Below, in pieces: positions 2,313 to 32,000 of a stretch of DNA of 32,000 nucleotides (the stretch's first letter is position 1; each line of letters begins with the position of its first letter). The notes under the pieces were generated by a model. The model saw only the letters and a program-made list of their open reading frames with translations, did no database searches and was not told the DNA's origin. The DNA is from Pseudanabaena cinerea FACHB-1277 (GTDB lineage: Bacteria > Cyanobacteriota > Cyanobacteriia > Pseudanabaenales > Pseudanabaenaceae), in NCBI RefSeq assembly GCF_014696345.1, contig NZ_JACJPY010000028.1, forward strand, positions 19,151 to 51,150, in the 5' to 3' direction. Both the position numbers and the translations under genes were made by a program.

Positions 2313-3179
2313 ATGCCCGAGTTACCCGAAGTTGAGACAGTGCGGATTGGTTTAAATCAAAATACCTTAGGTTGGCAAATTGAGGATGTGGAGGTGTTGT
2401 TGGCTAGGGCGATCGCCTATCCTGAGCAAACCCAAGATTTAATAAACCTCCTCATTGGGGCAGAATTTCAGGAATGGCAAAGGCGAGGCAAATACTTAAT
2501 CGCGCAATTGTCCAGTGGGCGGAAATTGGGCGTACATTTGCGGATGACGGGCAGTTTGTTATGGTGCGATCGCGATGCGCCAGTGGGGAAACATACGCGG
2601 GTGAGAATGCTCGTCAAGGAAAAAGTAGAAAGGAAAAAGGAAAAAGGGGGGAAGGAGTTGCGGTTTGATGATCAACGGACTTTTGGGCGGGTTTGGGCAG
2701 TGCCGCAGGATCGGGCGGTGGAGTCGGTGATTACGGGATTGCAAAAGCTGGGGCTGGAGCCTTTTGATCTAGAATTTACGCCTGAACATTTGGCGGCTAA
2801 GTTGAGCCGTAGCGGTCGCCCGATTAAAACTGTGCTGCTCGATCAGGAAACAGTGGCGGGGATCGGCAATATTTATGCTGATGAGTCGTTATTTTTGAGC
2901 CGAATTTATCCAGAGATGGCGGCAAATTCTCTAAGTTTTGAGCAGGTGCGATCGCTGCATCAAGGAATTATTCGCGCCCTCAGTGATGGTATTGCCAAGG
3001 GTGGGACAACCTTTAGTTCTTTTCAAAATATTGCAGGAATTAAGGGTAATTATATAGATACGGCTTGGGTGTTTCGCCGCAATGGTCAACCCTGTAATGT
3101 CTGTGGCACAGCGATCGCTAGGATCAAGTTAGGCGGACGATCAACCCATTTCTGCCCAAAATGTCAAGCCATAGATTGA
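2313..3179 (+). CDS. mutM: formamidopyrimidine-DNA glycosylase (Fpg/MutM)
   Basis: Canonical MPELPEVETV N-terminus, GNIYADE H2TH region and C-terminal zinc finger CNVCG...CPKCQ. It contains a lysine/glutamate-rich insertion (KEKVERKKEKGGK) encoded by a polypurine tract. Confidence 0.9.
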   Translation: MPELPEVETVRIGLNQNTLGWQIEDVEVLLARAIAYPEQTQDLINLLIGAEFQEWQRRGKYLIAQLSSGRKLGVHLRMTGSLLWCDRDAPVGKHTRVRMLVKEKVERKKEKGGKELRFDDQRTFGRVWAVPQDRAVESVITGLQKLGLEPFDLEFTPEHLAAKLSRSGRPIKTVLLDQETVAGIGNIYADESLFLSRIYPEMAANSLSFEQVRSLHQGIIRALSDGIAKGGTTFSSFQNIAGIKGNYIDTAWVFRRNGQPCNVCGTAIARIKLGGRSTHFCPKCQAID

Positions 3180-3263
3180 AAGTGTGGCATGATGGGCGGC
3201 ACTGTATCCTAACTGGTTGCCGATCGCACTAGTAAATTTGTATTCTTAACACAAAGTTACAAA

Positions 3264-5270
3264 ATGTTTATGAGTAAGAAAGATCAACCACACAAACCAT
3301 CGCCCATTAGCGATCGCCCTGAAGAAGAGGAGGATAATGCCATCGATTCCCAATTTCGACCGAAGTTACACCATTTGTTGGTGATCCTATTTGTCGGCAC
3401 GGTTGTCAGTGGAGCCGCAGCAAGGAACTGGCAAATAGTTGGTAAACAAACCGCCGTTAGCAAGGTCACACAAACTAACTATCAAGCGACGGCAAATTTA
3501 CCCCTAGTCGATGCCAATGGTTTACCTGTGATGAATCCACAGCCGCCATCGGATGCGGAGGTATGGGAATGTGATGTGGCGATCGTGGGTGGCTCCCTTG
3601 GTGGTGTGGCGGCGGCATACCATTCCATGAAAACAGGAGCTACAACTTGCCTAATCGAGCTAACGCCCATGCTAGGCGGACAGGTGAGTTCGCAGGGGGT
3701 CAGTGCGATCGACGAATCAATGCTAATGCGCTATCGTCAGCAATTTCCCTTGAGTTGGACACATTTCAAAAATATTATTGCCAGTCAGCCTGCCCTACCC
3801 CAAAAATATTCCTATCTCAAGCCGGGGGCGGTGGTGGCTGATACCAATAGCTGCTGGGTGGGCAATCTTTGCTTTACCCCCTATTCGGGCGAACTTGCCT
3901 CTGAAGAGTTTTTGCGTGAGTCCCAGCGTTCTGCCCCAAAAAGTCGATGGGGAACCCAAATTGCTTTTAAGGGTGCAAGTTTTAACGAGCGCGGCGATCG
4001 CATTACGGCTATTCATGGCGTGAAGCGGATTCCCCGCGATCCCAACTATTTGCCAGTGGGTCGCCTCTCCCGTGAGCTCAAAGGCTGGTATAACTGGAAC
4101 TCTGATGAAACCTTTGATAAAAAAGCGATTCGCCTCCAAGCACCTGTGGGCAAACAGATGCAGGTAATCGATGCCACGGACACCGCCGAATTAATTGCAT
4201 GGGCAAATTTGCCTCACCGTGTTGGCTCCGAAGGTTTTGAAACCACAGGCGAAGTCCATGCTGTTGCCGATAACCCCGACTGCACCCAAGCATTTACCTT
4301 CCCCTTTGTCCTCAAAATTGCCGATGATGGTGGGCGATCGCTCAAGGAACTCAGCAAAGTCCAACCAGGCTTCTCCCGTGAAGAACATCGCCGCGACTAT
4401 GATCTAGGGCGATTTCCTATGTTTGAGGGCAATAGCGTATTTAACTATCGCCGTATTGTCAGTATGCGGCGCGATGATCCCTTCACTGCTACCCCTGTCC
4501 AAGGCGATATGACCGTGATCAATTGGAATCGTGGCAATGATTGGGGCATTATGAACCCCCCTTTGATCTTGACCGAGCAGCAGATCCGTGCATCAGGACA
4601 ACAGCAAAATTGGCTAGGGGGTTTGAATACCACAGCGCTCAAGGATGGCGAAAATCATGCACTGCTCTTTGCCGAGTGGCTCATGGAAAAGTATGCATCA
4701 TCCCAGTTTCCCTTGCGGATGATGTCTGGTCCTGATAGTCCTATGCCCACCGAATCAGGGCTAAGTATGTATCCTTACATTCGGGAAGGGCGCAGAATTT
4801 TAGGACGTGCCGCCTATGGGCAGAAAGAATTTATGATGCGGGAACAGGATATTCGTAATGATATGCGGGGCGGTCGCGATTTCAACGCCACCTCGATCGG
4901 TATCACTCACTATGCGATCGATATGCATGGTTGCCGCTATCGCAACTGGGAGCCATCGAAAGCGCCAAGCTCGGCTCCTGCCAATGAGGATAAAGTGCTG
5001 CCGATCATTCTGCCCTTCGAGAGTTTGATTCCCCAACGCATTGATAATTTGCTCATTGGCGGTAAATCAATGGCAGTTAGTCATATTGTTAATGGTGCAA
5101 CCCGTATCCATGTGGGTGAATGGTCAGCAGGGGCGGCGGCTGGCGCGGCGGCAGCTTGGTTATCTTTGCAAAGTGACAACAGCCTAACGCCACAGGCGAT
5201 TCTTGATCGCGGTAGACTCAACGAATTACAGGACTTACTGCGATCGCAGGGGATTGTCTTGCGCTGGTAA
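3264..5270 (+). CDS. FAD-dependent oxidoreductase with an N-terminal membrane anchor
   Basis: 668-aa ORF. It has a dinucleotide-binding motif (DVAIVGGSLGGVAAAYH...LIELTPMLGGQ) and a hydrophobic segment (LLVILFVGTVVSGAAA) near the N-terminus. The start could be the ATG at 3264 or at 3270. Confidence 0.7.
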   Translation: MFMSKKDQPHKPSPISDRPEEEEDNAIDSQFRPKLHHLLVILFVGTVVSGAAARNWQIVGKQTAVSKVTQTNYQATANLPLVDANGLPVMNPQPPSDAEVWECDVAIVGGSLGGVAAAYHSMKTGATTCLIELTPMLGGQVSSQGVSAIDESMLMRYRQQFPLSWTHFKNIIASQPALPQKYSYLKPGAVVADTNSCWVGNLCFTPYSGELASEEFLRESQRSAPKSRWGTQIAFKGASFNERGDRITAIHGVKRIPRDPNYLPVGRLSRELKGWYNWNSDETFDKKAIRLQAPVGKQMQVIDATDTAELIAWANLPHRVGSEGFETTGEVHAVADNPDCTQAFTFPFVLKIADDGGRSLKELSKVQPGFSREEHRRDYDLGRFPMFEGNSVFNYRRIVSMRRDDPFTATPVQGDMTVINWNRGNDWGIMNPPLILTEQQIRASGQQQNWLGGLNTTALKDGENHALLFAEWLMEKYASSQFPLRMMSGPDSPMPTESGLSMYPYIREGRRILGRAAYGQKEFMMREQDIRNDMRGGRDFNATSIGITHYAIDMHGCRYRNWEPSKAPSSAPANEDKVLPIILPFESLIPQRIDNLLIGGKSMAVSHIVNGATRIHVGEWSAGAAAGAAAAWLSLQSDNSLTPQAILDRGRLNELQDLLRSQGIVLRW

Positions 5271-5274
5271 GCAG

Positions 5275-5313
5275 AAAAGGAGAATAGGGCTAAGTCCTAT
5301 CCTCCTTTTTTTT
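5275..5313. terminator. bidirectional rho-independent terminator between convergent genes
   Basis: Left arm AAAAGGAGAATAGG (5275-5288), 7-nt loop, right arm CCTATCCTCCTTTT (5296-5309). This gives a 14-bp stem with one mismatch and a T-run extending to 5313. An A-run on the left provides a U-tract for the minus strand. The right arm overlaps the last codons of the DUF3082 gene. Confidence 0.7.
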
Positions 5314-5622
5314 GAAAATTGCGATCGCAACCTGCTTCACTGTCAATAACACCAAACCCAAAGCGATGACGGCAAAGATCATCGTTGCACCAGAGCCGAG
5401 GGCTAATAGTAAAGTCCGCACTAGCGTGGCAAGACGATTGGCAAGGGTATTGGTGGTTTGCAAGGGCGCAGAGGCTAATTTATGGGCAACCATATTGGTA
5501 AAAGCATAAAGCCCTGTTGCCAGAGTGGCCGCGATCGCTGCACCCGTGAGATTTTTAAAAGGAGATGGCGCAATATTTTCAGAGGCTGCGGCTAAAGATG
5601 CTTGTGGTGTTTCGTCAGACAT
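5290..5622 (-). CDS. DUF3082-like small membrane protein
   Basis: The ATG at 5622 gives MSDETPQASLAAAS... with two hydrophobic segments. The longer ORF-track version (to 5763) starts at a TTG and only reads through the heptamer array, so I discount it. Confidence 0.6.
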   Translation of the reverse strand: MSDETPQASLAAASENIAPSPFKNLTGAAIAATLATGLYAFTNMVAHKLASAPLQTTNTLANRLATLVRTLLLALGSGATMIFAVIALGLVLLTVKQVAIAIFKKKEDRT

Positions 5623-6834: not shown

Positions 6835-7854
6835 ATGCTATCCTCCCCCGTCATGCAGCCAGCGATCGCCCAATATCCCATTGCCCAATATCCCATTAGT
6901 ATTGCGCCGATGATGGATCGCACCGATCGCCATTATCGGTACTTCATGCGACAGATCACTAAACAGACGCTGCTCTATACAGAAATGGTGACAAGTGCCG
7001 CAATTAAGCATGGCGATAAAGATTATTTATTAGGATTTTCAGCCTTGGAGAAACCTTTGGTATTGCAGGTGGGGGGCGATCTGCCGCAGGATTTGGCGGA
7101 ATGTGCAAGGATTGCGGCGACGATGGGCTATGACGAGATTAATTTGAATGTGGGTTGTCCTAGCGATCGCGTCCAGAGTGGCAATTTTGGCGCTTGTTTG
7201 ATGAAAACCCCTGACCAAGTGGCGCGATGTATTGAGGCAATGGGTCGCGCCGCACCGATCGCTGTGTCGGTCAAACATCGCATTGGTGTCGATGAACTCG
7301 ATAGTTATGAGCATATGCGAAATTTTGTGCAGATTCTGGCATCCGCAGGCTGTCAAAAATTTACAGTTCATGCTCGCAAAGCTTGGTTACAGGGGCTAAG
7401 CCCCAAGGATAACCGCGAAATTCCGCCATTGCGCTATGGTGATGTGCATCAACTTAAGCAGGAATTTCCCCATTTATTGATCGAAATCAATGGCGGCTTT
7501 ACTGATTTAGAACAGGCTCAGGCACAGTTAAATTATGTGGATGCGGTGATGATTGGTCGCGCTGCCTATGACAATCCCTATTTATTTGCCACCAGCGATC
7601 GCCAATTTTATGGTTCTTCCCATTCTATTCCCAGTCGTTTAGAAGTTGCGGCGGCGATGATTCCCTATATCGATCATTGGACAGCCAAGGGATTGAAACT
7701 GCATAAAATCACCCGTCATATGCTGCAACTGTTTCACGGTCAAGCAGGGAGCCGTATTTGGAAGCGGATGCTCACGGATAATTCCTGTAAGGCAGGGGCA
7801 GATTCGGCAGTAATCGAAGAAGCGATCGCGGCGGTAAGATTATGTCTAGGGTAA
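6835..7854 (+). CDS. dusA: tRNA-dihydrouridine(20/20a) synthase
   Basis: ISIAPMMDRTDRHYRYFMR, EINLNVGCPSDRVQ and VKHRIG are DusA-type motifs. The N-terminus contains a perfect 15-nt tandem duplication, so the exact start is uncertain (6835 or ATG 6853). Confidence 0.85.
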   Translation: MLSSPVMQPAIAQYPIAQYPISIAPMMDRTDRHYRYFMRQITKQTLLYTEMVTSAAIKHGDKDYLLGFSALEKPLVLQVGGDLPQDLAECARIAATMGYDEINLNVGCPSDRVQSGNFGACLMKTPDQVARCIEAMGRAAPIAVSVKHRIGVDELDSYEHMRNFVQILASAGCQKFTVHARKAWLQGLSPKDNREIPPLRYGDVHQLKQEFPHLLIEINGGFTDLEQAQAQLNYVDAVMIGRAAYDNPYLFATSDRQFYGSSHSIPSRLEVAAAMIPYIDHWTAKGLKLHKITRHMLQLFHGQAGSRIWKRMLTDNSCKAGADSAVIEEAIAAVRLCLG

Positions 7855-25858: not shown

Positions 25859-26748
25859 TTGAGTCTATGCCTCAATCATCAGTTGGCTAAAACTATGGTA
25901 ATTGCTCAACCTAGAAAAATCAAAGAAAAAAAGGTCGAAAAGTGGGAAAATGACAGGATGAAAGAACTTCCCAATCTCAAGGAGCTAACAGAAGAAGTGA
26001 AAGAAGCCTTGATAGTGGAATTATGGGAAAAAACACAAAAGTTAGAGAAACCGCTAGAAAAGAAACCAAAGAAAACGTCAAAAAACTCCAGCCTACCACC
26101 AGCGCGAGGATTTAAAGCTCAAACAAAAAGTGGAAGAGAAAGGGAATGACCAGCAGCGAACTAGTAGCATAGGGAGAGAAGGAGGAGTTCGTCCGTTGAG
26201 TGAAGCTCCAGACCAAATCATCAAAGCCACCGTAAAAAGTTGTGCAGAATGATGCAGCAGATGATGTCGGAAGTGTTCGGATTAGAGATTTCAGAAGGGG
26301 CGATCGCCAACCTGCTGATGCGCGTGCAAGGACAACTAGAGAATGAGGTAGAGAATATCCTCAAAGGAGTCAGAAGCGCTCGACTGATATGCAGTGATGA
26401 AACAAGTGCGAGAGTAAATGGCAAAAACGAGTGGGAATGGGTATTTCAAAACGACCAAGTCTGTTTTCATATCATCCGTCCATCCAGAGGTGGTGATGTC
26501 TTCAAAGAAGTGGTGGCAGAACACCAGCCCGAAGTATGGGTATCAGACTTATATAGCTCCCAGAAGACACATCCCGCCATTGGGGTCGAGATTTATTTGC
26601 GATGGTTCGCTCTATTGTTAATACTGGAAAGAGACATGGTTTATCCACTTTTGAATCGATTCTTGCTGCTTTGAATCCCCTCAAATCCCTATTTTCTCTA
26701 ATGCGATCGCCCAGATTGACTTCACGCTTGGCAGTGTTGACAGCTTGA
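25859..26748 (+). mobile_element. decayed IS66-family transposase (frameshifted, with internal deletions)
   Basis: Four fragments lie in different frames. (1) 25859-26149: LKELTEEVKEALIVELWEK...KKTSKNSSLPP, the IS66 N-terminal coiled coil. (2) About 26150-26255: IGREGGVRPLSEAPDQIIKATVKSCAE. (3) 26240-26580: MSEVFGLEISEGAIANLL...ICSDETSARVNGKNEWEWVF...VWVSDLYSSQ, the DDE core. (4) 26557-26748: FAMVRSIVNTGKRHGLSTFESILAALNP, the C-terminus. About 0.9 kb remains of an expected ~1.5 kb. I could not identify terminal inverted repeats. Confidence 0.7.
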
Positions 26749-26856: not shown

Positions 26857-27909
26857 TTAAGGGGCAGGATTGAAATAGCGATAATGGACTTCTTCAATGG
26901 CGGTCAAAATTTCGGCGCTAAGCTGCACCTTGGCGCTGTCGATGTTTTCTTGCAGTTGTTCCATTTGGGTTGCGCCAATAATTGTACTAGACACAAACCA
27001 ACGACTGCGGACAAAGGCGAGGGCAAGTTGCACGGGTGATAGCGCATATTGCTGAGCGATCGCCACATAATCAGCGATCGCCAAATTTACATTCGTTTTA
27101 TAGTAGCGCTGTCCAAAATTAGGAAATAGCGCCATACGGCTATTGGGGGGAGTGGTTTGCAAATATTTACCCGACAAGCGCCCAAAGGCAAGGGGGCTGT
27201 AAGCCAGTAACCCCACATTTTCGCGATAGCAAGCTTCCGCAAGGTTAATTTCAAAGGTGCGATTAACGAGGTTATAGGCATTTTGAATAGAGATAATTTG
27301 CGGTAAATTATGGATTTTGGCAAGGTGACTAAATTCACAAATGCCCCATGCTGTCTCATTGCTAACGCCGACATAGCGAATTTTCCCCGCCTTGATCAAA
27401 TCTGCAAAGGTTTCTAACTGCTCATGCAAACTCACCATTTCGCGCTCCTGTGCAGGATTAAACTCCACCTGCCCAAACATCGGTACATTGCGATCGGGCC
27501 AATGGATTTGATAGAGATCGATATAGTCAATTTGCAGACGCTTGAGGCTGTCTTCAACCGCTTGCAATACATTCTTCCGACTGAGGGCGGCGATCGCATC
27601 ATCTCGCAACCATTTATAATTGCGCCCCGTGCCAATGATTTTGGTGGCGATAATTAATTTGTCTCTTTGGGCTTTGATGTGGGGCTGCGCCAACCACTCA
27701 CCCAGATACTGCTCTGTCGTGCCTTGGGTTTGGGCATTGGGCGGCACGGGATACATTTCTGCCGTATCAATAAAATTTATACCTTGGGCGATCGCATAGT
27801 CTAGTTGTTGATGTGCCTCAGCGATCGAGTTTTGCTGTCCATAGGTCATCGTCCCTAGACAGATCTCGGATACTAAGAGTTCACTATTGCCAAGTTGGTT
27901 GTATTGCAT
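26857..27909 (-). CDS. NADP-dependent aldo/keto reductase (Tas-like)
   Basis: The ATG at 27909 gives MQYNQLGNSELLVSEICLGTMTYG. Also present: FIDTAEMY, DLYQIHWPD and VGVSNETAWG. The upstream extension in the ORF track is discounted. Confidence 0.85.
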   Translation of the reverse strand: MQYNQLGNSELLVSEICLGTMTYGQQNSIAEAHQQLDYAIAQGINFIDTAEMYPVPPNAQTQGTTEQYLGEWLAQPHIKAQRDKLIIATKIIGTGRNYKWLRDDAIAALSRKNVLQAVEDSLKRLQIDYIDLYQIHWPDRNVPMFGQVEFNPAQEREMVSLHEQLETFADLIKAGKIRYVGVSNETAWGICEFSHLAKIHNLPQIISIQNAYNLVNRTFEINLAEACYRENVGLLAYSPLAFGRLSGKYLQTTPPNSRMALFPNFGQRYYKTNVNLAIADYVAIAQQYALSPVQLALAFVRSRWFVSSTIIGATQMEQLQENIDSAKVQLSAEILTAIEEVHYRYFNPAP

Positions 27910-28026
27910 ATGGTTTAGACTCCTGTTAGTCACTTGTCGCTTTAATTTCGGCAGTGATGCTTTAGCATAAATAATCTGTAATGCTTGCACAAAAAGGGGC
28001 AGCGATCTTTAATCCATAAGATAAAA

Positions 28027-28056
28027 TTGCAATTTTTGTTCTTGAGAGCATAAACT
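28027..28056 (+). promoter_or_regulatory. candidate sigma70-type promoter for the 28071-31622 gene set
   Basis: TTGCAA (28027-28032), an 18-nt spacer, then TAAACT (28051-28056), ending 14 nt before the first ATG. This is hexamer matching by eye only. Confidence 0.25.
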
Positions 28057-28070
28057 TTCGAGCAGAATCA

Positions 28071-28265
28071 ATGAAGCAAATTACGCCATTGGGTAGCGTC
28101 TTAAAGGAAGAGTTGCAGGAAGCAATCAGTGATGCTTATGGAGTGGCTCTATCAGGTGTGGCGGCTGAGGCTTTTGGTGGTTGCTATACGGTTACACAAT
28201 TAGCGGCTATGGTCGATCTCGATAGGATTATCAATCAGGCGATCGCTTTAGTTTCTAATAACTAA
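28071..28265 (+). CDS. small hypothetical protein (64 aa)
   Basis: ATG start with a HIP1 site inside. It lies 37 nt upstream of the next ORF on the same strand. I recognise no domain, and coding status is uncertain. Confidence 0.4.
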   Translation: MKQITPLGSVLKEELQEAISDAYGVALSGVAAEAFGGCYTVTQLAAMVDLDRIINQAIALVSNN

Positions 28266-28302
28266 GATAAAATCAAGGCAATGGTAAATCATTGGTGCAA
28301 TT

Positions 28303-28836
28303 ATGGAAGTTATTACTCCAATTCTGGCTGCGATCAAAATCATTGTTGACTCTGGGGTATTGAGCAAGGTCGGTGATGGTGCAATTGCTAAAGTTGGTGA
28401 AAATTCTGTAGATTTTGTCAGCAACTTGGCTCAGAGATTATGGTATGTGCTAGTACAGAAAGCTCCTGATACTAAGAAATGGGGTACAGGTAAAGAGATC
28501 GATTATCAGCAAGCGGTAATTGATGTGGAGGCGATCGCCTCCGATCCTGAAGTTGCGAAGTTGTTGGATGAGGTGCGATCGCTACTATCAAGTAATCAAG
28601 AACTAGCGGCTAAGGTTGAGGCTTTGCAAAAACAAATCGAGCAGTTAACCAATACAGCAAACAATCCCCAAAGTACACAAGTGGCTCTTGAGTATTTTGA
28701 AGCAGGAGAGCTAGAGGGAGAAATTAGGCAAGAAAAGCCTCAGAGCGATCGCCAACAGAATACGGAGCAAGTGGCAGCAAGGAATGTCAAAGTAGCGGGT
28801 AAGGCAGTAATTACAATCAATCAGAAAATAAATTGA
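28303..28836 (+). CDS. hypothetical protein: hydrophobic/Gly-rich N-terminal helix, coiled coil, and a C-terminal I-x-I-x-Q-x-I-N tail (candidate membrane-targeting effector, Bell/HeLo-like by architecture)
   Basis: 177 aa. The N-terminus is MEVITPILAAIKIIVDSGVLSKVGDGAIAKVGE. The central region has heptad-like sequence (EVAKLLDEVRSLLSSNQELAAKVEALQKQIEQL). The C-terminus is NVKVAGKAVITINQKIN, directly followed by the stop. The stop TGA shares a base with the next ATG. The Bell/HeLo analogy rests on architecture only, not on demonstrated homology. Confidence 0.6.
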   Translation: MEVITPILAAIKIIVDSGVLSKVGDGAIAKVGENSVDFVSNLAQRLWYVLVQKAPDTKKWGTGKEIDYQQAVIDVEAIASDPEVAKLLDEVRSLLSSNQELAAKVEALQKQIEQLTNTANNPQSTQVALEYFEAGELEGEIRQEKPQSDRQQNTEQVAARNVKVAGKAVITINQKIN

Positions 28837-29198
28837 TGCTTATGAATACATTGATACCTCAATCGTCTGCGCTTGGGCTTGCCTTTGGGCTTTCCTTAAA
28901 TTTACCAAAGCAACAGATTCAGGCATTTTGCCAGCGTTGGCAAATTCAGGAATTATATGTGTTTGGCTCGATCTTGCGGAATGATTTTCGTGAGGATAGT
29001 GATGTTGATTTTGTTTATAGGTTAGAGCCGATCGCTTCGTGGAGTTTTGGCAATTTGCTGGATGCGGAAAAGGAGTTATCGGCAATTGTGGGGCGTGAGG
29101 TGGATTTGGTTAGTCAAAGAAGTATTGATCGCGATCGCAATTGGCTGCGTAAGCAAAACATTCTCAATTCAATGAGGTTAATCTATGTCGCAAAATAG
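28836..29198 (+). CDS. mntA: MNT-type nucleotidyltransferase antitoxin
   Basis: VFGSILRNDFREDSDVDF matches GS-x10-DxD, the minimal nucleotidyltransferase motif. The ATG at 28836 overlaps the upstream TGA (TGATG); the ORF-track TTG at 28833 is less likely. It overlaps hepT by 14 nt. Confidence 0.85.
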   Translation: MLMNTLIPQSSALGLAFGLSLNLPKQQIQAFCQRWQIQELYVFGSILRNDFREDSDVDFVYRLEPIASWSFGNLLDAEKELSAIVGREVDLVSQRSIDRDRNWLRKQNILNSMRLIYVAK

Positions 29199-29541
29199 AG
29201 ACCCTGAATCCCTTCTAGATATTTACAATTACGGACAACAAGCGATCGCTTTTGTGGCAAGTCTGACTCAAGAAGAATTTGAAGAAGATGATAAATCGAT
29301 CGCCGCAGTCATGTATGTAGTTGCCATTATGGGAGAAGCAACGAAGCGTTTATCAAAGGAGTTTCGTCAACAGTATGACTTTATTCCTTGGGGAGACATA
29401 GCGGGAATGCGCGATCGGCTAGTCCATGATTATAAAAACATCGATTTGGATATTTTGTGGGATATTGTAAATGTGGAAATCCCTAGACTCTTAGCACAAA
29501 TTCAGCCAATGATACCAAGTTTTGAGGAGCGGTCGGAATGA
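29185..29541 (+). CDS. hepT: HepT-like (DUF86/HEPN) RNase toxin
   Basis: 118 aa. The R-x4-H-x-Y HEPN motif is intact as RDRLVHDY (29410-29433). It sits immediately downstream of, and overlapping, an MNT gene, which is the canonical pair order. Confidence 0.85.
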   Translation: MSQNRDPESLLDIYNYGQQAIAFVASLTQEEFEEDDKSIAAVMYVVAIMGEATKRLSKEFRQQYDFIPWGDIAGMRDRLVHDYKNIDLDILWDIVNVEIPRLLAQIQPMIPSFEERSE

Positions 29542-31622
29542 GCGATCAATATAATCAAACTGGGATTAGCGATTCGACTTTTGGCGACAATGCTCACATT
29601 GAGATTAAGCAGGAGATTAACGCGCCACGCCAGAAGCAACCCATTCCTGACAATGTACCTGTCGCTTCGCCGAACTTTGTGGGGCGGGTGCAGGAGCTTA
29701 AAGATATTTATGCCAAGTTGCAAACAGGGCAGGGGGTGAGTGTCTGTGCGGTGGAGGGCATGGGCGGATTGGGCAAAAGCGAACTGGCGCGGCGCTATGC
29801 TTGGGAATATCGACAGGAATATGCGGCGCGGTATTGGTTTTCGTTGCGGGGGGTGGGGTTGGCGCAGGCGGTGGTGACTTTCGCGAGTCGCTATCTGGAT
29901 TTGCCAGAGGTGATGCAGTCGCAAACCGTAGAGGCGCAAGCGGAATGGTGTTGGCAAAATTGGACACCGACTGAGGGGAAGGTGTTGGTGATTTTGGATG
30001 ATGTGACCGATCTCAAGAGTATTCCGCAACAGGCGCGCCCCTTGGCGGATCGCTTTCAGATTTTGGTGACGACCCGCAAGCGGAAGTTGAGTCCGTATTT
30101 TGCGGATATTCCTTTGAATGTGATTTCTGAGGATGAGGCGTTGGAGTTGTTGAGGAAGTTTTTGGGCGCGGCGCGGGTGAACCGTGAGGAGGACGCAGCA
30201 AAGGCAATTTGTGAAGATTTGGGTTATTTGCCCTTGGGTGTGGAGTTGGCGGCGCGATATTTGCAACTGGATGAGGATCTGTCGCTGGGCGATTATCAAC
30301 AACGCTTAAAGATCACCGATGAGTCGTTGGCTTTGCAGGAAACGGAAGAAATTAATGCGGGGCGAGGTGTGATCGCGGCGTTTGAGTTGAGTTGGCAGGA
30401 GTTGAGCGCGAGTACGGCGAAGGCGGCGATGTTGTTGGGGTTGTTTGCGCCTGCGGACATTGCTTGGGGTTTGGTGGAGGAGATTGCGGCGGATTTAATC
30501 GAGGTGGCGGATCTGCGGGAGGGGAGAAAGCAGCTTAATAATTTGTATCTGATTAAGGCTGTGGATCAAGAGCGCACAAGATTTGCGATGCATTCGCTGA
30601 CTAGGGAGTTTTTGCAATGGAAACTCGCTCAAGACTCGGATACTAATCGTCTATTTCGAGAAACCTTTGTTACCAGTTTGCTCAACAAAGCCAAACAAAT
30701 ACCCCAATCACCAACGCGAGATCTGATTGCCGCAGTAGCTCCCGCAATTCCGCATTTAGATATGTTGAGCCGTGAAATGCTCGATGATATTCCCAATCTT
30801 GAAGAAGATTTAATTTGGGCTTTTATTGGAATTGCAAGATTCTATGAAGGACAATCCCTATATTCATCTGCAATGCTTTTTTATCAAAACTGTCTTGAAA
30901 ATATTAAATCTTACCTAGGATTAGAACATCCTACGGTAGGAACTATCCTAGAAAATATGGCTAAAATAGACACATTGCAAGGTGATTTTGGCAACGCAGA
31001 AACTCGATCACTAGAAGCAATTTCTGTGTTCAAAAAAGTTCTGGGAAACTATCATCAATATGTTGCTTATAGTTTGAATAGTTTAGCAAATTGCTATTAT
31101 GAGCAATGCAGGTATAAAAAAGCTGAAGAGTGTTTATTACAATCCCAAGAAATTATTCGTATTACCTTAGGAGAAGATAGTTATCTATTTGCTGAAAACC
31201 TTTCTAATCTTGCCAATCTTTATCGAATACAACAAAAATTTATCGAAGCAGAAAGTCTATTTCTTAATGCCTTTCGTATTTTAAGAACCCAATTCTATGA
31301 TGATGATTTGCGGATTGCAACTATCCTTAATAATTTGGCTGAATTATATAAAGATCAAAAGAAATATAAAGAAGCAGAGACTCTATTTTCTCGTTCACTT
31401 TCTATTTGGTATCAAAATTTAGAATCATGCCATATTGATATTGCTCTTGGACTCAATAACTTGGCAGAATGTTATCGATTACAAAATAAGAATGGGAGTG
31501 AAGTAAAATTTCTTTATTTAAAAGCACAAGAAATTATGGAAAAAGCATTAGGTGAAAATCATATAAAGGTAAAAATAATTCGAGCAAATATGCGTCTTTT
31601 TCTTAAAGGACAGAACCTTTAA
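29538..31622 (+). CDS. STAND NTPase: short N-terminal motif + NB-ARC + TPR repeats (bacterial NLR-like)
   Basis: P-loop GMGGLGKS (29757-29780), Walker B VLVILDDV (29982-30005), a GLPL-like motif LGYLPLGVELAARYL, then about six 42-aa TPR_12-like repeats (for example LNNLAELYKDQKKYKEAETLFSRSLSI). Only about 47 aa precede the NTPase domain. The ATG overlaps the hepT stop as ATGA. Confidence 0.9.
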   Translation: MSDQYNQTGISDSTFGDNAHIEIKQEINAPRQKQPIPDNVPVASPNFVGRVQELKDIYAKLQTGQGVSVCAVEGMGGLGKSELARRYAWEYRQEYAARYWFSLRGVGLAQAVVTFASRYLDLPEVMQSQTVEAQAEWCWQNWTPTEGKVLVILDDVTDLKSIPQQARPLADRFQILVTTRKRKLSPYFADIPLNVISEDEALELLRKFLGAARVNREEDAAKAICEDLGYLPLGVELAARYLQLDEDLSLGDYQQRLKITDESLALQETEEINAGRGVIAAFELSWQELSASTAKAAMLLGLFAPADIAWGLVEEIAADLIEVADLREGRKQLNNLYLIKAVDQERTRFAMHSLTREFLQWKLAQDSDTNRLFRETFVTSLLNKAKQIPQSPTRDLIAAVAPAIPHLDMLSREMLDDIPNLEEDLIWAFIGIARFYEGQSLYSSAMLFYQNCLENIKSYLGLEHPTVGTILENMAKIDTLQGDFGNAETRSLEAISVFKKVLGNYHQYVAYSLNSLANCYYEQCRYKKAEECLLQSQEIIRITLGEDSYLFAENLSNLANLYRIQQKFIEAESLFLNAFRILRTQFYDDDLRIATILNNLAELYKDQKKYKEAETLFSRSLSIWYQNLESCHIDIALGLNNLAECYRLQNKNGSEVKFLYLKAQEIMEKALGENHIKVKIIRANMRLFLKGQNL

Positions 31623-31760
31623 AATTAAAGTAAAATGCAGAAAATCGAAATCGCTTTATCAACAAGCCCTTGTTTTGAGGCAAAACCATTGTTGAGCAAT
31701 AGATGTATAAGGCTTACTTGGTTGCTACAATTGCTTTAGTCTCAAAAAAACCTAAAGGCA

Positions 31761-32000
31761 ATGCAAATAAATAAGTTTGTGGCAATTGGCGCGATCTCTT
31801 TAGTATCTATCAGTGTGATCGCATTTCTCAATAATGTTAAATATCAGGAAGAGAAAAAGGCAGCACGGCTAGGGCTAGGAGGCGCTAAAGTACGATGTTC
31901 CATGCTTTCATTTAATATCAGAGATGTCGAATCTTGGAAAGAGGCGGTAAAAGCTCCGTCAAATCAAGAAAGGGAAAAACATAAACAGTATTTACTCTGA
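31761..32000 (+). CDS. small hypothetical membrane-anchored protein (79 aa)
   Basis: ATG start, hydrophobic N-terminal segment FVAIGAISLVSISVIAFL, stop at 31998-32000. It is AT-rich with no HIP1 site. Coding status is uncertain. Confidence 0.3.
   Translation: MQINKFVAIGAISLVSISVIAFLNNVKYQEEKKAARLGLGGAKVRCSMLSFNIRDVESWKEAVKAPSNQEREKHKQYLL

Follow-up and report, generated by a model that had tools for sequence, protein, structure and literature searches.

The first and last genes of a four-gene operon in Pseudanabaena cinerea FACHB-1277 probably constitute an amyloid-signalling pair, a small effector with a Bell domain carrying at its C-terminus the motif that an NLR-type receptor carries at its N-terminus. 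The operon lies in a window of 32,000 nucleotides (nt) of contig NZ_JACJPY010000028.1 (positions 19,151 to 51,150; coordinates below count from the first letter of the window) and its four genes, all on the + strand, are tightly packed with overlaps of 4, 14 and 4 nt. The effector gene (28303–28836, 177 residues; MBD2150571.1 / H6F44_10625 of Pseudanabaena sp. FACHB-1277, 100% identity) is followed by a MntA-like antitoxin gene, a HepT toxin gene and the receptor gene (29538–31622, 694 residues). A probability of about 0.68 was assigned to the reading that the two outer genes form a Bell/BASS–NLR pair of the kind reported by Dyrka et al. (2020; bioRxiv 10.1101/2020.01.06.895854). A preliminary description of the window, made from its letters alone, had proposed an amyloid-signalling-like pair, and this proposal gained support from the Bell homology of the effector, from the matching of partners between motif classes and from a reverse screen seeded with the receptor motif. 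Systems of this kind have already been published for the genus, and the window holds a further member with an unlisted motif subfamily; that its two motifs form amyloid and cross-seed is what we infer.

Effector, receptor and their matching termini

The 177-residue open reading frame (ORF) ends in ...NVKVAGKAVITINQKIN, its last ten residues, AVITINQKIN, being encoded at 28804–28833, and receptor residues 19–28 read AHIEIKQEIN (29592–29621). Six of these ten residues are identical (A, I, I, Q, I and N), as the preliminary description had noted, and the two further pairs that it had aligned upstream, Q156/Q7 and V164/F15, share this register and fall into a gap-free alignment of 23 columns. In this alignment effector residues 155–177 (EQVAARNVKVAGKAVITINQKIN, 28765–28833) face receptor residues 6–28 (NQTGISDSTFGDNAHIEIKQEIN, 29553–29621) with 7 of 23 positions identical. 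The nucleotide identity of 19/30 claimed for the ten-residue stretch had to be corrected, since a recount over the 30 bases gave 17/30. Neither 23-mer contains proline and both are rich in N, Q, G, I and V, a composition and a length of about 23 residues that agree with the published BASS features (Dyrka et al. 2020, bioRxiv 10.1101/2020.01.06.895854). The two genes are collinear and 701 nt apart; judged by sequence, the C-terminus of the effector and the N-terminus of its NACHT/NB-ARC partner appear to bear one and the same motif, in collinear order and within less than 5 kb.

When the effector tail was compared with any 10-mer of the shuffled receptor N-terminus, six or more identities out of ten were reached in 30 of 20000 shuffles (p ~1.5e-3), and the BLOSUM sum of 23 in the fixed register had a shuffle p of 0.0003. 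Among 200 natural N-termini from the collected loci, homologous receptors alone reach six identities.

The receptor showed clear matches to Pfam NB-ARC (9.8e-14, 51.6 bits against a cut-off of 23.5; residues 53–242) and to TPR_12 (6.2e-39, 132.5 bits), with the Walker A motif GMGGLGKS. With an NB-ARC NTPase and C-terminal repeats, the protein is by its sequence an NLR/STAND protein.

For the effector, Pfam, NCBIfam and PADLOC gave no family beyond coiled-coil noise. A homology search collected 140 relatives of the 177-residue protein, nearly all from Pseudanabaena. The N-terminal domain is homologous to P0071 (phmmer E 6e-26), which is BBC24761.1 of Pseudanabaena sp. ABRG5-3, a protein listed as a Bell-domain protein with BASS3 and paired with the NLR BBC24758.1 (Table S2, bioRxiv 10.1101/2020.01.06.895854). 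A profile search over 1.8 billion representatives reached 95 of them, and a word-indexed search 415 proteins of ~130–150 residues with BASS-like tails. This extended family has members in Nostoc, Anabaena, Scytonema, Microcoleus and elsewhere; they begin with MEP, their first helix is hydrophobic and their C-termini carry recognisable BASS5, BASS7, BASS9, BASS10 or BASS3 motifs. Because of its homology to a listed Bell protein and to this BASS-tailed family, the N-terminal domain is assigned to the Bell domains. It begins ME-VITPILAAIKIIV; residue 2 is acidic and the N-terminal helix hydrophobic (MEVITPILAAIKIIV). Together with the all-helical bundle of the predicted structure, these are the features described for Bell domains (hydrophobic N-terminal helix, acidic residue at position 2 or 3).

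Some relatives of the effector gene show unusual arrangements. In L019 (positions 3029–5527; the collected loci are numbered with the prefix L) a Bell protein with a BASS9-like tail (NRDNSQGYQFNNKVEASIIGGNHTHIYG) has its stop codon abutting an NB-ARC ORF without a motif at its N-terminus; a fusion broken by a frameshift, or a receptor from which the motif has been lost, could explain this. Two tandem Bell genes, the first with a BASS4 and the second with a BASS3 tail, are found in L013 (4957–6378), and BASS4-tail fragments lie upstream of other Bell genes in L016 (5322–5498) and L028 (215–481); these three loci point to effector genes that form local arrays and decay.

Structure prediction with AlphaFold2 from an alignment of Pseudanabaena sequences alone gave an unusable model (predicted local distance difference test, pLDDT, 47.7). 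With a broad Bell alignment the best model reached pLDDT 62.9, the remaining four being poor. In this best model helices are placed at residues 6–16, 33–53, 55–62, 68–78, 82–97 and 99–118 (pLDDT of the blocks 57–81); the secondary structure of the first model was similar. They delimit a predicted helical Bell-like domain of residues ~1–119 (28303–28659), which also shows conserved columns in two alignments. The layout proposed in the preliminary description, a hydrophobic first helix, a helical body and a C-terminal motif, agrees with this model, in which the helices run to about residue 118 and are followed by a non-helical tail. The tail is predicted as strands and not as a helix packed on the domain, the case that had been named as a refutation. 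Its four strands (125–130/137–144 and 155–160/168–175) form two equivalent blocks with a linker between them, and the second block coincides with the effector-side motif. The first block, residues 125–144 (TQVALEYFEAGELEGEIRQE, 28675–28734; strands with pLDDT 52–61), is acidic, with a net charge of −5 compared with +3 for the terminal motif. Such a tail fits a HET-s-like two-rung arrangement in the best model, in which the first block would be a tentative pseudo-repeat. The idea of HET-s-like charged pseudo-repeats was not borne out by the sequences, the repeat similarity being insignificant in 8/8 effectors (p 0.06–0.59) and the complementary charge pattern missing in L035/L037, and the pseudo-repeat is kept here as a tentative idea. 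A Foldseek search of the effector model against the PDB gave a best E value of 0.66 and no match to Bab or HeLo, the quality of the model being limiting; plant NRC coiled-coil domains appeared at a probability of at most 0.1. A profile search against PDB sequences found nothing below E 0.1.

Tail classes and partner matching among related loci

Conviction comes from the comparison of related loci. We collected 23 genome loci and read their downstream receptors; 21 pairs could be scored for partner matching. Among the homologues one conserved N-terminal domain carries four interchangeable tails. Class A (...QTGFDNVKIKGKATIKLNQQIN), of which the window tail is a variant, is not in the published table. 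By Table S2, class B (...KLAEKIGIVVQSGGKADIQTFNM) is BASS5, as in the Pseudanabaena SR411 pair (L017), class C (...ISIGKQINVDQSGTGNTQTNTFNL) is BASS3, and class D (...VEQTMLKNVKVTGDIDLGDLTQEA), the same tail as in Cuspidothrix, is BASS4. The identity of L017 with the SR411 pair OYQ63525.1/OYQ63523.1 was judged from identical motif sequences and the strain name. Motifs were found at both termini in orthologues and paralogues. Across the family the receptor N-terminus follows the class of the upstream tail: partners scored 45.7 on average and combinations with another class 26.9 (21 pairs), and when partner labels were permuted the observed sum was reached in 0/20000 cases. Over all loci read, this agreement between tail and receptor class was seen in about 30. 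The covariation within pairs that had been predicted for this system holds, then, between motif classes; within class A it does not.

The class-A motif can be written Q-T-G-h-x4-h-x-G-x-A-x-I-x-I-x-Q-x-I-N, with a core common to effector and receptor of Q2 T3 G4 h5 ... h10 G11/12 A14 I16 I18 Q20 I22 N/D23. On the receptor side it occurs in two forms. Form A1 (QTGISGSTFGDNAQIEIKQEI) is present in the window, L002, L005, L009, L026, L029 and L032–L038, and forms the first half of a bipartite N-terminus in L008; form A2 (QTGLDNVNIGGDAEINISQEI) is found in L030/31 and L006 and as the first half of the bipartite N-termini of L001, L014, L016 and L017. In at least 12 loci an A1 receptor lies downstream of a class-A effector. 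Both window termini belong clearly to their own sides of the motif family: the tail scored 29.0 bits (E 6.5e-8) with a profile of the other effector tails of the class, and the receptor N-terminus 43.8 bits (E 1.4e-12) with a profile of the other A1 N-termini, the window being omitted in each case. Across the two sides the window tail reached 5.1–5.2 bits with the receptor-side profiles, and no single profile captured both window termini significantly. The effector-side profile matched A2 receptor N-termini at E 2e-6 to 0.01 and the A1-only profile matched A2 receptors at E 1e-4 to 7e-3. With an A2-only profile effector tails were among the top non-receptor matches (E 0.011), behind one antisense-ORF artefact. 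The relation of class-A effectors to A1 receptors is consequently a transitive one on the sequence evidence, because the direct profile link is insignificant (1–5 bits) and A2 is linked to both; gene position backs it.

Gene position was also read in the opposite direction. Metagenomes were screened with the A1 receptor motif as the only seed, and among the 7 loci returned an effector with a class-A tail stood upstream in 6. In three of these six the effector has a helical N-terminal domain without demonstrable Bell relation (L035:879–1367, L036:26–514 and L037:3000–3497; MSDPITASLLVGLAV..., no Pfam match). Comparison of this domain with Bell as a possible homologue gave an hhalign probability of 1.6%, and it may represent a second type of effector domain served by the same motif. 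Since the A1 motif also heads receptors of the NACHT type (L008, L029), the receptor-side motif is, as far as sequences tell, modular. The class-A pairs span divergent lineages, from L030/31 with 13/23 identical positions to L026, where the partners are adjacent at 30 nt and share 4/23 in fixed register, and to L035–L037 with the other N-terminal domain.

A chance resemblance of two low-complexity termini, with the genes functionally unlinked, would account for a short motif singled out post hoc and for a free local alignment score at background level (see below). It is highly improbable in the light of the comparative data (the label permutation, the cross-profile matches and the reverse screen), which effectively refute it; the shuffle tests (p 3e-4 to 1.5e-3) and the published precedent in the same genus point the same way.

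Several observations weigh against an amyloid-signalling pair in the window. The free Smith-Waterman score of tail against N-terminus is 24, within the range of unrelated pairs (14–26), and a second test gave p = 0.04. Since this score is no better than that of unrelated combinations of tail and N-terminus, the match of the window pair taken alone is modest and no more than suggestive. Within class A covariation is absent, the diagonal averaging 31.5 and the off-diagonal 31.4, and 20256 of the 40320 exact permutations reach the observed sum. The effector-side profile misses the A1 receptor N-termini (1.2–1.5 bits), and class-A tails match A2 receptor N-termini better than those of the A1 type that they adjoin. 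The effector models are, moreover, of low to moderate confidence and the fold and PDB profile searches were empty.

Because the class-A tail fits A2 better than the A1 type beside it, the window pair could be a recombinant or weakened combination, and a mismatched or decaying pair is the strongest alternative that arises from these data. The locus would descend from a genuine Bell/NLR pair, and recombination would have set a tail of the A2 lineage beside a diverged A1 receptor, so that templating would be weak or lost, and the effector may then be an orphan or be triggered in trans by another receptor of the genome. Class-A tails score 54–66 with A2 N-termini and 24–37 with the adjoining A1 ones, and in fixed register every class-A effector peaks with the L030 receptor and not with its own. 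Tails and N-terminal domains do recombine, the tail of the window being found on a different N-terminal domain in P0002/L027, and relatives do decay, as seen in the insertion of an IS5 element with loss of the NLR in Nostoc PCC 7107, in a frameshifted effector (L023) and in truncated receptors (L022, L027). However, the combination of A1 and class A recurs in the loci counted above, including the distant L026 and L035–L037, which argues that it is maintained; the four window genes are intact with overlapping boundaries, and an identity of 7/23 lies within the range of published BASS4 pairs ('lcs' 6–15). We regard a mismatched pair as unlikely and retain the amyloid-signalling pair as the better explanation, with the window pair apparently at the weak end of its motif family.

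Some loci of the collection deserve separate mention. Receptors with tandem motifs (L001, L006, L008, L014, L016 and L017), in which A1 or A2 is followed by a BASS5 motif (...SQEIHHEPNKLADKIGVVAQ...), adjoin class-A (L006), BASS5 (L001, L008, L016, L017) or BASS4 (L014) effectors, and by its sequence one such receptor might address two effectors. The DNA encoding the receptor motif NLLGDADINISQEIH in L017 contains a palindrome of 46 nt (6908–6953; two 23-nt arms, 91% complementary, no loop), and therefore its antisense strand encodes almost the same peptide. In L006 the palindrome is weak, and L030 and the window do not have it; it may be a by-product of codon complementarity (I/N, D/I, L/Q, G/S) or a real hairpin. 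In Nostoc sp. PCC 7107 (L024:5001–6906, CP003548.1) a class-A-like Bell effector with the tail SQTVLERVEIIGKVKLKSNQIIY is preceded by a BrnT/BrnA toxin-antitoxin pair and followed by an insertion sequence (IS) element of the IS5 type (DUF4096 + DDE_Tnp_1) and an apparent C-terminal TPR remnant, so that the receptor seems to have been destroyed.

Relation to published amyloid-signalling systems

The strings KLNQQ, ATIK and IKQEI were not found in the supplementary tables of Dyrka et al. 2020. As a proxy for BASS4, a hidden Markov model was built from the motifs in the 16 BASS4 rows of Table S2 (it is not the authors' own model); true BASS4 tails scored 35–42 bits with it and their receptors 4.9–23 bits. 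The score was 7.5 bits (E 0.4) for the class-A consensus tail and 2.0 bits for the tail of the window; the receptor of the window gave no match, and membership in BASS4 was rejected. BASS1-3, BASS5-10 and the unassigned pairs were rejected as well: in a pairwise comparison with the motif instances contained in parts 6–9 of Table S2, their best Smith-Waterman scores were 12–27, and the shuffled null had a mean of 28–29 and a 95th percentile of 35–36. BASS4 was the best-scoring published motif in the same comparison with these parts of the table, still inside the shuffled null.

Class A is regarded, on the strength of its sequence, as a divergent relative of BASS4 outside the published list. It shares with BASS4, exemplified by Cuspidothrix PPJ64015.1/PPJ64013.1 (VEQTMLKNVKVTGDIDLGDLSQE), the first half of the motif (Q-x-x-h-x-[ND]-V-x-V-x-G), a long tail and a possible upstream pseudo-repeat, BASS4 being often repeated on the Bell side (2021 grammar paper), and Pseudanabaena sister proteins bear canonical BASS4 on the same N-terminal domain. 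In contrast to BASS4 (Q-x-h-L-x-x-V-x-V-x-G-x-h-x-h-G-D-I-x-Q), the second half of the window class has no G-D-I-x-Q turn, and its conserved Q stands one residue closer to the central G. Some receptors of BASS4 partners (NQTGFQDVSVGGNLTANLDQ) visibly resemble A2.

Among known systems, the published Bell/NLR pairs with BASS1-10 (Dyrka et al. 2020) are the closest. The window N-terminal domain is homologous to the same-genus proteins BBC24761.1 and OYQ63525.1, and in common with these pairs the window has a collinear downstream NB-ARC/TPR receptor, a filamentous cyanobacterial host and a motif of ~23 residues rich in N, Q, G, I and V at the effector C-terminus and the receptor N-terminus. It differs by the 0.7 kb MntA/HepT cassette between the partners, 57% of the published Bell/NLR pairs lying within 10 bp (Dyrka et al. 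2020, bioRxiv 10.1101/2020.01.06.895854). The logic of HET-S/NWD2 of Podospora anserina (HeLo, HRAM) is alike, with an adjacent NLR bearing one N-terminal copy of the motif and a membrane-targeting helical effector domain with a hydrophobic N-terminal helix; a C-terminal region with two pseudo-repeats is possible in the window effector according to the predicted model. Unlike HET-S, the window effector has a bacterial host, no sequence or detectable fold similarity to it and a pseudo-repeat without statistical support. Bab/Agp (BASS11), an antiphage abortive infection system of E. coli that defends against phage by cell death, is the only bacterial case of amyloid signalling with a demonstrated function (Ibarlosa et al. 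2024, bioRxiv 10.1101/2024.11.07.622273). Here also a small Bell-related effector carries at its C-terminus an amyloid motif to which the N-terminus of the adjacent sensor corresponds, but the sensor is of the TPR-GreA/B-C-PIN type and not of the NB-ARC NLR type, the motif belongs to another family, and the solved Bab domain gave no match to the window effector in PDB sequence or fold searches.

By analogy with these systems, the NB-ARC/TPR receptor would sense a cue through its TPR array and oligomerise, as its domain family suggests, gathering the N-terminal motifs of 23 residues (6–28) into a cross-beta fold. This fold would template the C-terminal motif of the effector (155–177), perhaps together with the pseudo-repeat at 125–144. 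Conversion of the tail would then free the helical Bell domain, whose hydrophobic N-terminal helix may attack the membrane and kill the cell in the manner of HET-S/HeLo and Bab.

The same termini might act as a tag for beta-strand interaction, or as a shared signal for localisation or degradation, with no prion-like templating. An alternating I-x-I-x-Q-x-I pattern suits any beta strand, the amyloid behaviour of class A rests on inference, and the predicted monomer already shows an intramolecular arrangement of four strands. On the other side, sister tails on the same N-terminal domain are BASS3, BASS4 and BASS5, and Dyrka et al. (2020, bioRxiv 10.1101/2020.01.06.895854) report fibrils and prions in experiments with BASS3 and BASS1. 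BASS1 was not found among the tails here. The composition and length of the motif and its freedom from proline are also BASS-like, and such a non-amyloid tag appears improbable.

The cassette between the partners and the surroundings of the operon

The two middle genes (28833–29541) very probably encode a HepT/MntA type VII toxin-antitoxin (TA) system, as judged by their adjacency and motifs. The MntA-like nucleotidyltransferase of 121 residues (28833–29198), whose start overlaps the effector stop, matched Pfam NTP_transf_2 (2.3e-15, 57.2 bits, above the cut-off) with a readable GSx10DxD motif, and NCBIfam MntA_antitoxin at 8.5e-12, under the curated cut-off. The HepT toxin, a HEPN RNase of 118 residues (29185–29541) whose gene shares 14 nt with MntA and 4 nt with the start of the receptor, matched Pfam HepT-like (4.3e-24, 85 bits, above the cut-off) with RDRLVH as its Rx4H motif. 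The NCBIfam equivalog cut-off of 60 was reached by neither gene (44.9 and 38.4). The motifs, the overlapping frames and the usual sizes agree with known type VII HepT/MntA modules, and the window module differs from these in being nested inside another two-gene system. The MntA-like antitoxin also matched the PADLOC candidate defence family PDC-S09 (E 5.9e-20); PADLOC gave no match for the effector or HepT.

The preliminary description had taken the TA pair between the partners as the feature that sets this locus apart. The pair is present, but it is not peculiar to the window and is the norm in Pseudanabaena. Counted over 28 distinct Pseudanabaena-type loci with both partners visible, a cassette or its remnant stands between the partners in 25. 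MntA/HepT fills the position in five loci (window, L005, L009, L021, L030/31) and is also present in L027 and L028, where the contig stops short of the receptor; RelB/ParE does so in seven, with two further remnants, DUF29 in all BASS4 loci, and HicB/HicA or a HicA-like gene in five. The published SR411 pair (L017), with a listed distance of 476 bp, holds RelB/ParE. Four Bell loci of other cyanobacterial orders (Anabaena, Argonema, Microcoleus, Phormidesmis) have the partner directly adjacent and no cassette, and direct adjacency was also seen in L026 and L035/36. The type of cassette tracks the motif class, DUF29 going with BASS4, a HicA-like gene with BASS3, mostly RelB/ParE with BASS5, and MntA/HepT or RelB/ParE with class A. 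Toxins are unmentioned in Dyrka et al. 2020, and a text search of the literature gave no description of the cassette arrangement.

MntA/HepT is one of several small cassettes that can replace one another in this position, and most likely an addiction module that hitch-hikes with the motif pair. For the whole set, the simplest reading has mobile addiction modules settling at an operon junction that tolerates them and being inherited along with the motif pair on either side. A functional role of the cassette is possible but unsupported. A bolder proposal, which we consider doubtful, is that the effector–receptor junction of Pseudanabaena is a dedicated cassette slot, where the whole unit of tail, cassette and receptor N-terminus recombines or the TA system is wired into the death pathway; no description of either version was found in the literature searched. 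L006, compared with L001/L017, has a recombination breakpoint between tail and cassette and is an exception to the module model.

Around the operon, a 64-residue ORF directly upstream of the effector (28071–28265, + strand) is what is left of the C-terminal part of a DUF29 gene; it shares 59% identity with residues 91–139 of the intact protein of 143 residues in L028, which itself passes Pfam DUF29. In L028, L032/33 and L037 an intact DUF29 gene lies immediately upstream of a Bell gene. The operon is outside any obvious defence island, since it is surrounded by housekeeping genes, a fragment of an IS66 transposase and a gene for an aldo/keto reductase. The IS66-family fragment (26240–26674; a 144-residue ORF covering profile positions 27–140 of 284) is found 1.6 kb upstream and, seen from the operon, beyond the aldo/keto reductase gene on the opposite strand. 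Scans for promoters and terminators over 27900–32000 gave nothing above the shuffled expectation.

Signalling by amyloid templating has been established experimentally for few motif families, and in bacteria a role has been shown once, for Bab/Agp. The findings leave the general picture of this type of system unchanged. To it the locus adds a motif subfamily, related to BASS4 but distinct, that occurs on two effector N-terminal domains, the second without detectable Bell relation, and on two types of receptor NTPase. The natural pairs, ranging from 13/23 to 4/23 identical positions, offer a ready series for the similarity needed in cross-seeding, and the nested TA cassettes a handle on the upkeep and shuffling of suicide operons. 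If the dedicated slot were real, a recombining unit of effector tail, cassette and receptor N-terminus would keep the two motif halves matched during shuffling, and a TA system wired into the pathway would act as an addiction device that keeps the suicide operon from being lost, or as a second arm, an RNase, set free once expression of the operon collapses.

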